17,571 bases of DNA from a virus. Both the position numbers and the translations under genes were made by a program. Positions 6,210-11,629 of this stretch are shown in pieces (within the stretch, counting starts at the first letter, position 1; every line of letters begins with the position of its first letter). The notes under the pieces are model-generated. The model searched no databases and was not told where the DNA came from. It saw only the letters and a program-made list of their open reading frames with translations. Location: the UHGV virus genome UHGV-0122130; one strand, written 5' to 3'.

Positions 6210-7382
6210 TTACGCGCTGACCTGGCTGGCGAAATTCACCAGGTACTGATCGGTGATGCGCTGACGCAGCATCAGGTTTTCAAGTGGCGGCACTGGCGTG
6301 TAGTCGTAGTCGATGGTGAGTTTTCCGGCTTTCAGCGTGTCTTTGTCGTTCACCGACTCGTCCAGCCAGCAATCACCACCAATGAGATACCCCTGACTGA
6401 CCAGGCTGCGCATTTTGGCGCGGATACCTTCGATAATGTCGCGCGCCAGCGACGGGTTAAGAGGTTTATCCACCGCCCACATGTGCGCTTCTGCCATCGT
6501 GTCCATCAGCACCTGCGCCGTGCGGGTGTAGTTTTCGAAGGTAAAGAGCGGGTCATCACTCAGGCAGCGGGAACCCCAGAAGCGGAAGCCGTCTTTACGC
6601 ACAAGTGTGGTGACGTCGTTCTGGTTCAGCAGACCTGCATCGGTTGCCGGGTCCTGCAGATCCCAGAAAACATCAGCAGAAATTCCGGTGACACCGTTAA
6701 CGCCCACGTTGGACAGGCTTTTGTGCCATCCGGTCTGCTCGTCAATTTTGGCGCGCAGACCAAGCGCACGGGCGGTGGCATAAGCCGTTGCTTCGGCATT
6801 CAGCACCGTGTCCCAGCCAGTAAAGTCGGGCCAGATCAGCATTCCTTCACGCTGACTGAAGTTTTTACGGTAAGTGATTGCTTCCTGCACCGTCTTGCAA
6901 CCATACGCTGACAGGTAAGCAAATCCACGCAGGCTTTGCGCCACGCTCAGCAACTCAGTAGCTACCGCCTTCGTGTCGTGACCTGGCACGCCGAGAATGC
7001 GCGGTTTAACGCCGAGCTGTGACTGGGCAGATAACAGGGCTTTCATGCCTGTTTTTTTACCTTCAGCGGTCACTGCTCCGATGATATTGGTCGTGGTTTC
7101 TTCTTCCGTTTCACCCTGCGGTACACGCACAACAACGGTCACGGGTTTTGCCTGGTCAGAGATGGCGTCCAGCGAACGGGCCAGCGTGCCGGACTCACCC
7201 GCTTTACCGCTGGCAGTCAGCACATCAGTGATCAGCACGGGTTTATTAAGAGGAAACATTTTTGCATCGGCATCATCGCCCGTGCAGACCATACCCACGA
7301 TGGCGGTGCTCACCGTGGTAATGGATCGGGTGCCTTCGTTGACTTCAACAACGCGCACCCCATGGTGGTAATCCTGAGCCAT
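6210..7382 (-). CDS. FI: Contractile tail sheath protein FI
   Basis: ORF 6210..7415; P2 gpFI-like N-terminus [19 protein letters not shown] begins at the internal Met (ATG 7382..7380), which is preceded by AGGAGG about 8 nt upstream. Confidence 0.88.
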
Positions 7383-7457
7383 AGTGGCGAACCTCCTGAT
7401 TGGATTAGGCTTCACCCTATGTTGAAGTGATTGTGCCTGACAAACAGCTAAGCGCAG

Positions 7458-7477
7458 TTGTACCGTTATTCACACAA
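7458..7477 (-). promoter_or_regulatory. Candidate Ogr-dependent late promoter activator site (TTGT-N12-ACAA dyad) upstream of FI
   Basis: ttgtaccgttattcacacaa at 7458..7477, centred about 88 nt upstream of the FI ATG. P2/186-type late promoters carry a TGT-N12-ACA element centred near -55. Confidence 0.45.
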
Positions 7478-7524
7478 AATGACGGTATTTGTCTGCTTGC
7501 AGGGATAATCAAAATAATGCTGAT

Positions 7525-8091
7525 TCAGGGAGATTCATTGCTCTTATTTGCCGGAAATTTTCTATAAATGGTAGAAACGCCTACATCAAAAATCAGTGCA
7601 ATACGCTGTCTTGATTCTCCGGCCTCGAGTAAGCGTCCAATCTGTGCCCACTGTTCGGTGGTCAACTTAGGACGGCGTCCACCTACTCTGCCTTTGGCGC
7701 GAGCTGCAGCAAGCCCCGCCCTGGTACGTTCAACTATCAGTTCGCGTTCCATTTCAGCCAGGGCGCCCATGACATGAAAAAAGAAACGGCCCATTGGGGT
7801 ACTGGTATCAATACTGTCAGTCAGGCTTCGGAAATTCACACCACGCTGGCGCAACTCTTCTATCAGCGTAACAAGATGCCGCATACTGCGCCCCAACCTA
7901 TCCAGCTTCCAGACAACCAGCGTGTCTCCTGCCGATAGTGTCCTGAGCAGTTTTTTCAGCCCCGGTCTGTCGGACTTAGTGCCACTGATTTTGTCCTCAA
8001 AAATCCGCTCACATCCCGCGCAGTTCAGCGCATTACGTTGCAAATCGGTGTTCTGGTCATTTGTTGACACGCGTACATAGCCAATAAGCAT
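7525..8091 (-). CDS. Serine-recombinase DNA invertase (Gin/Pin/Cin/Hin family)
   Basis: MLIGYVRVSTNDQNTDLQ... N-terminus with the catalytic-serine motif, GRFFFHVMGALAEMEREL core and C-terminal helix-turn-helix (RQRIALIFDVGVSTIYRKF); very similar in sequence and length to Mu Gin. The ORF opens at 8097 (MIM...), but the SD-like GGGAG fits the third codon best, so the start is set at 8091. Confidence 0.9.
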   Translation of the reverse strand: MLIGYVRVSTNDQNTDLQRNALNCAGCERIFEDKISGTKSDRPGLKKLLRTLSAGDTLVVWKLDRLGRSMRHLVTLIEELRQRGVNFRSLTDSIDTSTPMGRFFFHVMGALAEMERELIVERTRAGLAAARAKGRVGGRRPKLTTEQWAQIGRLLEAGESRQRIALIFDVGVSTIYRKFPANKSNESP

Positions 8092-8146
8092 GATCATCTC
8101 CCTGAATAAAAATAGGGGATGATGCCAGTTAGCCGTAATCGCTGCA

Positions 8147-8172
8147 TTTTCTTAAACGTTGGTTTGGGAGAA
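8147..8172 (+). repeat. Invertase recombination site (gix/hix-like 12-2-12 site), segment end next to the invertase gene
   Basis: TTTTCTTAAACG-TT-GGTTTGGGAGAA; shares a 15-bp perfect inverted repeat (ttggtttgggagaag, 8159..8173) with 9965..9979. Both half-sites resemble the hix/gix half-site pattern TTnTCnnAAACC. Confidence 0.6.
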
Positions 8173-8616
8173 GGTGCTCCGGCTATTGGAGTTCCGTTCT
8201 TCTGGCCCTCCGCTGCAATGCCAAATACCGTAATCAACAGCTGGTCCGGTATGGTGTTTTTGAAGTTCAACGGAGCGAAATTTTCTGCCACTGATTACCC
8301 TGTGCTGGCGAAAGTGTTTCCGTCGCTGGTATTACCTGACGCACGGGGTGATTTCATTCGTATCTGGGATGATGGGTGCGGGGTGGATAGTGGGCGAGCA
8401 TTATTAAGCTGGCAGGCAGCAACATCTTTATCGCAATTTGGAGGTAATTATCCAGAGGGCTCCGGCCATTCGATTGCTAATCACGATGGAATATCAGCAC
8501 ACGAGCCGGGTTTCTCTCGATACCATTACACCAGTAATTCAGTGGGTGATGGTGTGAATTTTATTGCCGTCAGGCCACGTAACATCGCATTTAACTTTCT
8601 GGTGAGGGCTAAATAA
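8159..8616 (+). CDS. Silent alternative tail-fibre C-terminal cassette (Sv'), promoterless in this orientation
   Basis: ORF 8119..8616 reads ...NVGLGEGAPAIGVPFFWPSAAMP...KFSATDYPVLAKVFPSLVLPDARGDFIRIWDDG, a Mu/P1-type fibre C-terminus. The frame is continuous with the constant part of H across the crossover core. The first 13 codons of the ORF-track ORF (8119..8158) lie outside the segment and are probably not coding. Confidence 0.7.
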
Positions 8617-9206
8617 TGAAACCTGTTTTTGATGAAAATGGGCTGGCTACAGTACCGGGTGATATGCGTTGTTTTTATTATGATGCAGTAACGTATGAAT
8701 ATACGGGTTGGTCTGATGAATATATTAATACTGGTGTAAGTATGCCCGCTTGTTCCACTTATATTGACCCGGGCGAAAACATTTCGGGGAAAGTGGTATT
8801 TACGGGGAAGGGATGGCACCATGAAGAAGACCATCGCCATGAGACTGTTTACTCAACCGAAAATGGCGCTGCCGTTACAGTGGATGATATCGGTGCCATC
8901 AAAGACGGTTATGTCACGCTTTCACCGTTAACGCCATACGATAAATGGGATGGGGAAAAATGGGTGACAGATACTGAGGCACAGCACGGTGCTGCAGTAG
9001 AAGCGGCAGAAACACAGCGCCAGTCGCTGATTAATGCTGCAATGGCGTCCATTAGTCTTATTCAACTGAAATTGCAGGCCGGACGGAAGCTGACGCAAAC
9101 AGAAACCACCCGACTAAACGCCGTGCTGGATTACATTGACGCGGTGACGGCAACAGATACCAGCACCGCGCCGGATGTCATCTGGCCTGAACTGCCGGAG
9201 GCGTAG
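8616..9206 (+). CDS. Alternative tail-fibre assembly protein (U'/Tfa), paired with Sv'
   Basis: 196-aa ORF whose start overlaps the Sv' stop (TAATG); conserved Tfa-like C-terminus ...LDYIDAVTATDTSTAPDVIWPELPEA, similar to that of the minus-strand assembly gene. Confidence 0.75.
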   Translation: MKPVFDENGLATVPGDMRCFYYDAVTYEYTGWSDEYINTGVSMPACSTYIDPGENISGKVVFTGKGWHHEEDHRHETVYSTENGAAVTVDDIGAIKDGYVTLSPLTPYDKWDGEKWVTDTEAQHGAAVEAAETQRQSLINAAMASISLIQLKLQAGRKLTQTETTRLNAVLDYIDAVTATDTSTAPDVIWPELPEA

Positions 9207-9618
9207 GCCATTCAATATCTGGAGCACCGGAAGTATCGACCAGTTCCAGTGCGTCCAGATAATCCAGCCACAAATTATATTGCGCCAGTTCCTCACCTTT
9301 CAGACGACCAATAGCTGCTTTACCAGGCCATTGCTTACTGTTTATGTATGCGTTGGCCTTATTAATCAATTGCTGCTTTTGCAATTCAGCTGCTGCAATC
9401 TGTTCTTCATGTGTTGGTGGTGGAATATCAATCCATGCTGGCATTCCGTCGATGACACCTCTGTATTTTCCTTCTGGTGCTTCCTTCATAAATTCGGCGG
9501 CAACAGTGTCGTCAATTTCGATTCCATCATCGGGCCATTCGCCGGATTCCTGATAAGCGATTTTAAGCTCCACAGGGAAAAACGCATTTTTATCGGCACT
9601 GAAAATATATTTCTGCAT
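9178..9618 (-). CDS. Tail-fibre assembly protein (Tfa, P2 G / Mu U equivalent), currently expressed copy
   Basis: 146-aa ORF immediately downstream of H on the minus strand; C-terminus ...LDYLDALELVDTSGAPDIEWPTPP is paralogous to the U' C-terminus. Confidence 0.8.
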   Translation of the reverse strand: MQKYIFSADKNAFFPVELKIAYQESGEWPDDGIEIDDTVAAEFMKEAPEGKYRGVIDGMPAWIDIPPPTHEEQIAAAELQKQQLINKANAYINSKQWPGKAAIGRLKGEELAQYNLWLDYLDALELVDTSGAPDIEWPTPPAVQAR

Positions 9619-9620
9619 TT

Positions 9621-11027
9621 CTACCGTCCTATCGAAATATAACTGAATCTGTATTGCTGTGAGATATTACTGGTTGCCACACGCCACGCTGAATTACTGA
9701 TATGTTCAAAATTTACAGACAAAACCTGCGGGGCAGGATTCGACGGGTCTGACTGAACGGCATCAGACATAACACTGACTGAAACCATCGGTTGATTAGG
9801 GAATGGTATAGGGAAGTGTCCACTGATAATGCGGGTCGTGTTCCCTGAAAAAGTGCCAAACTGAACAATATATCCACTTGGTAGCCTGAACCATCCCGAG
9901 CCAGAAGCGAATGCTCCCATATCCGGTATCTGATTTTCCCCTGTCCCCACATTCCTTCTTGCCGCTTCTCCCAAACCAAGGTATGTGAGAAGACCAGCTA
10001 CATCCTTTCCACTCAAATTAGTCAGCGTATTGTCCAGCGGTTGTTTACCTGCCAGCGCATTAAGCATTGTCGTGGCAAAGTTCGGGTCATTCCCCAGCGC
10101 TGCCGCCAGTTCGTTCAGTGTATCCAGTGCCGCAGGTGCAGAACCCACCATTGCCGCAATTGCCGATTTCACAAAAGCTGTGGTGGCAATCTGTGTATTG
10201 TTGACCGACTGTGCCGCAGTAGGTGCGGTTGGCGTTCCGGTGAGTGCCGGACTCGACAGCGGCGCTTTCAGTGCCAGCGCATTGTTAATGGTGGTACTGA
10301 ATTTCGGATCATTGTTAATGGCTGCGGCTATTTCTTTCAGCGTGTCCAGCGTGGCTGGCGCACCATTAATAAGAGCCGTCAGAGCCGCCTGAACAAACGC
10401 GGTGGTCGCAATCTGCGTGGTGTTATTCCCTGCGGCTGGCGTTGGCGCTTTGGGTGTCCCGGTAAACGTCGGACTTTCTTTGAGTGCATACTGTGAATGC
10501 GGGTCCGGTGCGGCAAGATGTTTTGCCATCTGATCATCCGCGTACACCTTCAGCTCCAGTGCCTTGTCATCCACATACTTGCGGGTTGCCAGCACTACGG
10601 CAGGGTCGATTTTCAGGGTGATATTGTCCGTGCTGCTGGTAATCAGCACCATGCGCACGGTCTGAGTGCGCCCGCTACCTTCAGCCAGTTGCGGCTTATA
10701 GCTTTCCGGGCAGTTGCCCGCGGCAATCAATGCCCCGGACTCATCAAACAAGCCCACTTCACGTATCCACCAACCGCCCTCGTTTTCAGGGATCACCTGT
10801 TCGGCAATAATCTGGCTGCTGTTCTGCGGGTCGATATAGAGCATATTCAGCGCAGCCCGGCGTTTCTCATTTACCAGTGCGGTCTGCTTTGAGTCTGGCG
10901 TTGGCAATACTCCGCCGCCATCGCCGACCGCCATATGGGTAATTTTTAGCGGCACACCGAGCGCGGCGGCGCTGGCAAGTTTCGCCGCGCCAATATCCGT
11001 CAGCAGGGTATAAAATTTTGTGCTCAT
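9621..11027 (-). CDS. H: Tail fibre protein H (constant part plus currently fused variable C-terminus Sv)
   Basis: 468-aa ORF; N-terminus MSTKFYTLLTDIGAAKLA...MAVGDGGG and internal NNTQIATTAFV...LDTLNELAAALGNDPNFATTM repeats match P2 gpH. The C-terminal 119 aa (from L350) lie inside the invertible segment. Confidence 0.9.
   Translation of the reverse strand: MSTKFYTLLTDIGAAKLASAAALGVPLKITHMAVGDGGGVLPTPDSKQTALVNEKRRAALNMLYIDPQNSSQIIAEQVIPENEGGWWIREVGLFDESGALIAAGNCPESYKPQLAEGSGRTQTVRMVLITSSTDNITLKIDPAVVLATRKYVDDKALELKVYADDQMAKHLAAPDPHSQYALKESPTFTGTPKAPTPAAGNNTTQIATTAFVQAALTALINGAPATLDTLKEIAAAINNDPKFSTTINNALALKAPLSSPALTGTPTAPTAAQSVNNTQIATTAFVKSAIAAMVGSAPAALDTLNELAAALGNDPNFATTMLNALAGKQPLDNTLTNLSGKDVAGLLTYLGLGEAARRNVGTGENQIPDMGAFASGSGWFRLPSGYIVQFGTFSGNTTRIISGHFPIPFPNQPMVSVSVMSDAVQSDPSNPAPQVLSVNFEHISNSAWRVATSNISQQYRFSYISIGR
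9966..9991 (-). repeat. Invertase recombination site (gix/hix-like) inside the H coding sequence, at the constant/variable junction
   Basis: Minus strand reads TTCTCACATACC-TT-GGTTTGGGAGAA with 10/12 internal dyad symmetry; the core TT sits at positions 2-3 of codon L350 of H. Confidence 0.65.
10029..10472 (-). repeat. Diverged tandem duplication (two units of about 74 codons) inside tail-fibre gene H
   Basis: Protein segments around aa 186-259 and 260-333 align (NTTQIATTAFVQAALTALINGAPATLDTLKEIAAAINNDPKF... versus NNTQIATTAFVKSAIAAMVGSAPAALDTLNELAAALGNDPNF...); the nucleotide copies are visibly related. Confidence 0.6.
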
Positions 11028-11629
11028 GGATTCACTCTCATTGTGTCAATAACATGGACCGCCCCGCCTTCATGCGCGGTGCCGCCAGAAATAATTGTTT
11101 CGTTGATATACGGATAGATCGTGATTTCTTCGCCAAGATAGCTGGCGGCCCCCACCCAATGCGGACCGCTGGTCTGCAGATTGATGGACATGCCGATCAT
11201 GTGACGGCTACATGGTTTGGCATCGCTTATCAGCCGCTCAAGTTCCAGATAGGTATCTTCAGTGATGCCCTGGTCCTGCACGCCGATATCCAGGCGAAAC
11301 GTGCCCGGTGTTTCTCCGGTCTGCCACCACTCAATAATGCGGATCAGGAATCCGAACGGTTCCACCACCCGCCGCACGGCACTGGTGGTTCCTTTATGCT
11401 GATGAATATAAAAAGCATCCTTCACTACCTGGCGTTTGACGCTTTCTGTCCAGCCCTCGTCCCAGCGATCCACAGAGAACGCCCAGGCGAGATAAGGCAG
11501 GAAGCTGACCGGACAGGTAGCCGGATTCCACAAGTCACGCAGCGACACCTGCAGATCAGAAATCCCGCTACAGGTTTGCGCCAGTCGGCGCTCCAGTGAA
11601 GTTGAACCCGGTGGCAGCAGACTATTCAT
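11024..11629 (-). CDS. I: Baseplate/tail protein I (P2 gpI)
   Basis: 201-aa ORF with P2 gpI-like motifs (LWNPATCP, LPYLAWAFSVDRWDE, GTFRLDIGV); overlaps the H start by 4 nt. Confidence 0.85.
   Translation of the reverse strand: MNSLLPPGSTSLERRLAQTCSGISDLQVSLRDLWNPATCPVSFLPYLAWAFSVDRWDEGWTESVKRQVVKDAFYIHQHKGTTSAVRRVVEPFGFLIRIIEWWQTGETPGTFRLDIGVQDQGITEDTYLELERLISDAKPCSRHMIGMSINLQTSGPHWVGAASYLGEEITIYPYINETIISGGTAHEGGAVHVIDTMRVNP

Follow-up and report, generated by a model that had tools for sequence, protein, structure and literature searches.

Recombination sites in the same codon phase at a predicted Pin-type tail-fibre switch of a P2-like Escherichia coli prophage

Introduction

It has been known since the work on Mu, P1, e14 and p15B in the 1980s-1990s that the half-site of a DNA invertase can serve at the same time as codons of the fibre gene in which it lies. 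The Mu G, P1 C and e14 P segments are the textbook cases of a crossover in the same codon phase at both ends of an invertible segment. For the last of these, experiments showed inversion at the repeat TTGGTTTGGGAGAAGG, with chimeric in-frame genes as the result (PMC12529663), and sequencing has detected inversion both in e14 and in the P2-like prophages that EPEC carries (PMC4272514). Fibre genes constitute a major class of programmed intragenic inversions (PMC9881135), and the inversion steps of Hin, Gin and Cin are summarised in PMC3575834.

The DNA considered here, referred to as the window, is the whole stretch of 17,571 nucleotides that was analysed (virus genome UHGV-0122130). On its minus strand there are genes for a sheath protein (6210-7415), a serine recombinase (7525-8091), the tail fibre H (9621-11027) and P2 gpI (11024-11629). 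The genes follow the order of P2-like phages (Peduoviridae), with the J-I-H fibre region, FI sheath, FII tube, tape measure, U and D; Tail_P2_I, Phage_tail_fib and sheath domains are present, and the cassette together with the fibre is common to phage 500465-2. The best match of the whole window is an E. coli chromosome (96.7% identity over 99% of the length), and coverage of at least 80% of the window is reached in 827 of the 5426 complete E. coli genomes. The window represents the late (tail) region of a prophage that is P2-like and of a very common E. coli type, and it carries what is with high confidence an inversion switch of the Gin/Cin/Pin type (Din family) for tail-fibre host range.

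In this locus a constant fibre part (Sc) can be followed by one of two variable modules (Sv or Sv'), each with its own chaperone (U or U'). With the P segment of e14 and its invertase PinE it shares an invertase of 85% identity, an identical TT GGTTTGGGAGAA core and inner half-site, a segment of ~1.8 kb with two fibre C-termini and two chaperones, an invertase transcribed away from that segment, a Sv' module homologous to StfE and the frame L/V-G-L-G-E; the invertase-proximal site of e14, TTTTCATAAACG-TT-GGTTTGGGAGAA, is one base from that of the window. The two differ in that the e14 element is lambdoid and defective and its StfP constant part has only 209 aa, whereas the cassette of the window belongs to a full P2-type H protein, whose constant part takes 349 codons, in a P2-like tail gene cluster that seems complete. 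The Mu G segment and Gin (74% identical) have the same order of Sc-Sv-U, U'-Sv' and an invertase pointing outward, the same architecture of 26-bp sites, the frame L-G-L-x-E and a TGGCAT motif between the site and the invertase start, but the core of Mu is TC, its inner half-site encodes GLQE, and the 3-kb G segment carries unrelated, larger Sv modules in a transposable myovirus host. The P1 C segment resembles the locus in its invertase (Cin, 77% identical), in the frame Y-L-G-L-R-E and in the place of the enhancer, which for the window is a candidate one, in the 5' part of the invertase gene; it differs in that cin is transcribed toward the segment, cixL overlaps the 3' end of cin and the segment has 4.2 kb. 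The Min system of p15B comprises multiple sites and segments, in contrast to the two sites of the window. Among P2-like phages and prophages with an invertible cassette (the EPEC E2348/69 prophages, phages 500465-1 and 500465-2, Cartapus and the prophage of E. coli NRZ14408) both the backbone and the locus are the same, and the window shows only allelic differences from them.

Recombination sites and reading frame

The proximal recombination site, of the pix/gix type, occupies the 26 bp at 8147-8172 with the core TT at 8159-8160, and reads TTTTCTTAAACG-TT-GGTTTGGGAGAA. It was recognised by direct reading and by inverted-repeat and consensus scans. The distal site, also of 26 bp, lies at 9966-9991 within the H gene; its reverse complement is TTCTCACATACC-TT-GGTTTGGGAGAA, and its core, AA on the plus strand (9978-9979), is the TT of codon L350 on the minus strand. 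Direct reading confirmed both sequences as they had been written in the initial annotation. As is expected of Din-family sites, the two are imperfect palindromes with 12-bp half-sites around a 2-bp core, stand in inverted orientation and have identical cores. The top inverted repeat of the region 7400-11100 has its arms at 8147-8173 and 9965-9991 (27 nt, 81% complementary), and the site pair shares an exact stretch of 15 nt, TTGGTTTGGGAGAAG, which begins with the core, takes in the inner half-site and ends one base beyond it.

When the 17.5-kb window was scanned with the invertase-site consensus TTCTCNNAAACCNNGGTTTNNGAGAA, allowing at most 3 mismatches, exactly two matches were obtained, at 8147-8172 and 9966-9991, in inverted orientation. 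There were 0 matches in 200 dinucleotide-preserving shuffles of the window, so that none is expected by chance, and a third site, as in Min-like multi-inversion systems, was sought in the window by the same scan and not found. Comparison with known sites had been suggested as a check of the initial annotation: the scorer recovers exactly two sites each in Mu (gixL/R), P1 (cixL/R) and e14 (pix), and the P1 matches coincide with the cixL and cixR annotated in GenBank, where the crossover is placed between the two core bases.

In the 468-aa H ORF (9621-11027, minus strand) the distal core TT takes positions 2-3 of codon 350 (CTT, Leu), and in the frame of ORF 8119-8616, on the plus strand, the proximal core TT supplies the second and third bases of a GTT codon. 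In both cases GGT TTG GGA GAA comes next in the same frame. The claim that the core falls at the same codon position at both sites, from which the initial annotation had predicted an in-frame junction of the H constant part with Sv', is borne out. In-silico inversion of 8160-9978 and translation in the H frame produced an ORF of 501 aa with neither a stop codon nor a frameshift, and the predicted junction, LTYLGLGEGAPAIGVPFFWPSAAMP, is found exactly there as well as in a natural inversion in NRZ14408. Two fibre isoforms are in this way defined, one of 468 aa (Sc-Sv) and one of 501 aa (Sc-Sv'). One site is inside the fibre gene, and the constant part joins either C-terminal module in frame, as in other invertible cassettes. 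Since the distal site lies within H and (C)TT GGT TTG GGA GAA stands in the same frame at both ends, inversion would swap the C-terminal, receptor-binding module of the fibre.

The in-frame outcome is independent of the exact 2-bp cut, and what decides it is the identical 15-bp block, which has the same phase at both ends. Because of this identity a crossover anywhere in the stretch gives the same products; for the same reason, comparison of sequences places the breakpoints within these 15 bp and cannot resolve a 2-bp cut. The same-phase reading is correct, and it is a rediscovery of a design already known.

Genes of the invertible segment

The invertible segment extends from 8160 to 9978 and measures 1819 bp between the mid-points of the cores. 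It is supported by the in-silico inversion and by the equivalent segment of NRZ14408, which is an exact reverse complement in one of two assemblies relative to the other. Outside it lies Sc, the constant N-terminal part of the P2-type H protein (9980-11027, minus strand; codons 1-349 and the first base of 350), with a Pfam Phage_tail_fib match (4.8e-64) that corresponds to the tail-collar fibre N-terminal domain. Over residues 1-356 it is 80% identical to gp22 of phage 500465-2. In the constant part of H, at ~10030-10430 (residues ~200-330), there are also two tandem repeats of ~65 aa, ...NNTTQIATTAFVQAALTALINGAPATLDTLKEIAAAINNDPKF... and ...NNTQIATTAFVKSAIAAMVGSAPAALDTLNELAAALGNDPNF....

The currently expressed variable module, Sv, has 118 aa (9621-9977, minus strand); it gives a match to Pfam Gp53-like_C (1.7e-8, H residues 381-468) and to the C-terminal end of phrog_2557. 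Its chaperone U (9178-9618, minus strand) matches Pfam Caudo_TAP at 1.7e-34 and phrog_188 at 4.6e-63. The silent alternative C-terminal module, Sv', has 151 aa (8161-8616, plus strand) and resembles the C-terminal ends of tail-fibre PHROGs, with a match to positions 211-381 of the 382 of phrog_3100 (5.7e-51). The same module is fused in frame to the constant part in NRZ14408 and in gp22 of phage 500465-2. The tail-fibre assembly chaperone paired with it, U' (8616-9206, plus strand), matches Pfam Caudo_TAP at 3e-28 and phrog_105 at 1.9e-80, and its start overlaps the stop of Sv' (TAATG). The convergent genes U' (plus) and U (minus) overlap by 29 bp at their 3' ends (9178-9206), an arrangement that is also annotated in NRZ14408, in Mu-like phages and in 500465-2.

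Invertase gene and its upstream region

The gene adjacent to the segment (7525-8091, minus strand) encodes a Pin-type serine DNA invertase of 188 aa, with matches to Pfam Resolvase (2.3e-53) and HTH_7 (1.5e-15) and to the PHROG DNA invertase (8.8e-101). Besides the identities to PinE, Cin and Gin given above, it is 100% identical to the NRZ14408 protein. When the protein is aligned with Pin, Gin and Cin, no change is seen at the catalytic serine S11 (Ser9 when counted from the Met at 8091) or at the conserved arginines R9, R67 and R70, which places it among the Din-family invertases. In the ORF list the gene starts at the ATG at 8097 (MIMLIGY...), and the Pin, Gin, Cin and NRZ14408 proteins begin with MLIGY. 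The true start is probably the ATG at 8091, which is preceded by GGGAGA.

A candidate recombinational (Fis) enhancer may be placed at 8002-8073 (minus strand), in the 5' end of the invertase gene. The assignment is by homology of position with the annotated enhancer of Cin-mediated inversion, at +19 to +90 of P1 cin, and the Fis sites in it are putative. The identity of this region is 78% to cin, 72% to gin and 89% to pinE. In codons 1-12 of the invertase 7 of the 12 third positions are invariant, as against 0-3 of 12 elsewhere. The 15-mers of the form G-N13-C at +22 and +71 of the gene were considered as Fis sites and rejected, as so degenerate a motif carries no weight.

Between the proximal site and the invertase start there is a conserved motif, TGGCATCAT (8119-8127, minus strand), whose complement provides an in-frame ATG-CCA upstream of Sv'. 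The distance from such an ATG-CCA to the core codon downstream of it is exactly 12 codons in the window (8122), in Mu, in e14 and in 9 other loci, that is in 12 of 42 distinct loci, while the intervening sequence is variable. The TGGCAT motif was also noticed upstream of gin in Mu (L003) and of pinE in e14 (L005), and in the loci L010, L016, L017, L019, L023, L028, L063 and L079. A generic scan for sigma-70 promoters and terminators over 7400-8400 gave no minus-strand promoter for the invertase. A sigma-54 reading (-24/-12) of TGGCAT-N-GC was rejected because the window (TA) and NRZ14408 (GG) lack the -12 GC; the extended -10 pattern TGnCATnAT fits more copies of the motif. It is possible that TGGCATCAT is the extended -10 element of the invertase promoter, kept at a fixed spacing from the site for autoregulation, and this is likelier than its reading as a start codon.

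Proposed mechanism of inversion

By analogy with the described members of the family, dimers of the invertase would bind both 26-bp imperfect palindromes, at 8147-8172 and, in H, at 9966-9991. Homology with Gin, Cin and Hin suggests that synapsis would be activated by Fis bound at the enhancer in the 5' end of the invertase gene. A staggered cut of 2 bp would then be made in each site at the TT core that they share, through a phosphoserine linkage, one pair of half-sites would rotate by 180 degrees, and religation of the DNA would leave the 1.8-kb segment flipped. After the flip, Sv' and U' would stand in the place of Sv and U, with the promoter and the 349-codon constant part unchanged, and the product would be a fibre of either 468 or 501 aa. 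From its family this locus may be expected to depend on Fis and the enhancer, to be cleaved at exactly the 2-bp core and to alter the host range.

Natural inversion and distribution

The records NZ_CP158426 and NZ_LT599825 are both of E. coli NRZ14408, and they carry a related prophage in opposite orientations. The two loci have an identical prefix of 2174 bp and an identical suffix of 2636 bp, and the 1807 bp between them are an exact reverse complement; inversion has actually occurred in this prophage. The two 26-bp sites do not differ in any base from those of the window, and the inverted assembly holds an intact 501-aa fibre. The prophage has ~94.5% identity to the window over 87% of the 3.6-kb query region. 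As the source of the window is a single sequence, inversion of its own copy is predicted from this related prophage with identical sites and invertase.

Among complete E. coli genomes in which at least 80% of the query is covered in one piece, 23 have the orientation of the window and 23 that of the in-silico inverted form. For the 3.6-kb switch region the best E. coli match is 94.9%, and there is no identical record among the E. coli searched. Gp22 of phage 500465-2 (Peduoviridae) was deposited in the fused form, has 501 aa and is collinear with the predicted fusion, to which it is 81% identical over residues 1-501. In phage vB_EcoM-606R2 the same Sv' follows a short, unrelated constant part, with the junction at LGLGE (...ALENLGLGEGAPAIG...). 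Five matches in the phage collection (H50-H54) cover only ~8154-9991 of the window, which is the cassette, so that it also passes as a unit from phage to phage.

The existing annotation of the NRZ14408 assemblies (L001 2156-2617; L002 3539-4006 and 4655-5044) may be described here as well. In PGAP/RefSeq the silent Sv' is labelled as an incomplete "integrase" pseudogene, and in the inverted assembly the 501-aa fibre is split into two pseudogene fragments though its ORF is continuous.

Frame and constraint across the family

A comparative set was composed of 79 Enterobacterales loci around relatives of the invertase, with one genome per species, and 41 site pairs were obtained from it. In the longest open frame the core lies at codon positions 2-3 in all 41 distal sites and in 40 of the 41 proximal ones, the exception being a degenerate site. 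Paired cores are reverse complementary (TT/AA or TC/GA) in all 41 pairs, a property that was itself the criterion of pairing and that is also seen in the unfiltered site list. The peptides encoded at the site are FIQN-L-GLQE in S of Mu, VIQY-L-GLRE in S of P1, ALEN-L-GLGE in stfP of e14 and LLTY-L-GLGE in H of the window. All four genes have a Leu codon here whose second base is the first of the core, and GGT TTR comes directly after this codon.

The initial annotation had proposed that protein and site are under joint constraint. The Gly codons of the site are GGT in 77 of 77 cases, compared with 30% GGT in neighbouring fibre coding sequence, and the Leu codons are TTR in 77 of 78, compared with 39%; the P values are very small and of qualitative use only, since the sites were ascertained with a consensus that contains GGTTT, which makes the test partly circular, and the loci are not phylogenetically independent. 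In the silent copy the outer half-site is conserved even where there is an in-frame stop codon inside it. The frozen synonymous positions and the outer half-sites kept despite stops point to a primary constraint at the level of DNA, with a fibre that tolerates L-G-L-x-E at the junction. The proposal is supported in part, on its DNA side, and a separate constraint on the LGLGE peptide is hypothetical.

Some further features of the set deserve mention. Three sites each are present in relatives from Pantoea allii (L058; 2560, 4811 and 5910), Escherichia sp. (L030; 44, 531 and 1045) and Trabulsiella (L009; 1404, 4706 and 5921), which suggests multi-segment switching of the Min or shufflon kind among three fibre tips. 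Contigs from draft genomes stop 64-270 bp upstream of the invertase start in ~23 of the 79 loci (L006, L012, L013, L018, L020, L026, L029, L032, L034, L037, L038, L040, L049, L054, L059, L060, L061, L067, L068, L069, L071, L083 and L084), approximately at the position of the recombination site, whose core is 68 bp upstream in the window. Coexistence of the two orientations in the culture that was sequenced may cause assemblies to break at the invertible segment. Invertases 76-77% identical to that of the window occur on a Moraxella osloensis contig of 1268 bp (L039) and on a contig of 2350 bp from a Chitinophaga MAG (L052), and these probably reflect contamination or mis-binning rather than the true distribution.

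Alternative explanations

A prophage in which the switch has decayed, so that this copy no longer inverts and is frozen in the Sv orientation, would also display one orientation in the single sequence of the window, and it would agree with the canonical invertase promoter not found by the sigma-70 scan of 7400-8400 and with an upstream motif slightly different from that of the relatives. Nevertheless, the invertase ORF is intact and equal to that of NRZ14408, where the inversion happened between two sequencings, both 26-bp sites are the same in the two prophages, Sv', U' and U are all intact ORFs, and the two orientations are equally frequent among related E. coli prophages; a relic is very unlikely. 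It is far less credible still, and close to negligible, that the inversion in relatives is due to RecA-dependent homologous recombination at short inverted repeats rather than to the invertase at a 2-bp core. This reading draws on the breakpoints being localised only to the 15-bp identical repeat, a length far below that needed for efficient RecA recombination. The repeats moreover match the Din-family consensus, adjoin a Pin-type invertase and belong to a family with reverse-complementary cores in all 41 pairs (by the criterion of their pairing), and the same repeat of e14 was inverted on expression of PinQ or PinE (PMC12529663).

An additional rather than competing function may be considered, in which a free fibre-tip protein is made from the proximal junction ORF, starting at the ATG at 8119 or 8122, with ~13 leader codons followed by whichever module adjoins the invertase, and acts in the cell, for example by masking receptors or excluding phages. 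The in-frame ATG-CCA at a fixed distance of 12 codons in the window, Mu, e14 and the 9 other loci would fit this, as would the call of Mu Mup52 from that ATG by GeneMark and the reported block of T2 adsorption by the e14 chimera StfE2 (PMC12529663). On the other hand, the peptide that would lead from the ATG to the site shows no conservation, an in-frame ATG is missing at 26 of the 42 proximal sites, many have a stop codon inside the outer half-site, and the complement, TGGCATCAT, is equally readable as an extended -10 of the invertase promoter, so that the idea is an unlikely one. If it were true, each orientation would give one virion fibre and one soluble receptor-binding fragment, and the "silent" module would not be silent.

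Significance

The use of these results lies in annotation: the prophage can be described as P2-like, with a working-looking host-range switch of the Pin type whose two fibre isoforms and their chaperones are defined. Loci of this kind are routinely mis-annotated and may break short-read assemblies. The principle that the half-site doubles as codons is re-confirmed over ~40 further Enterobacterales loci, and by virtue of it any module bounded by a site can join any constant part in frame.
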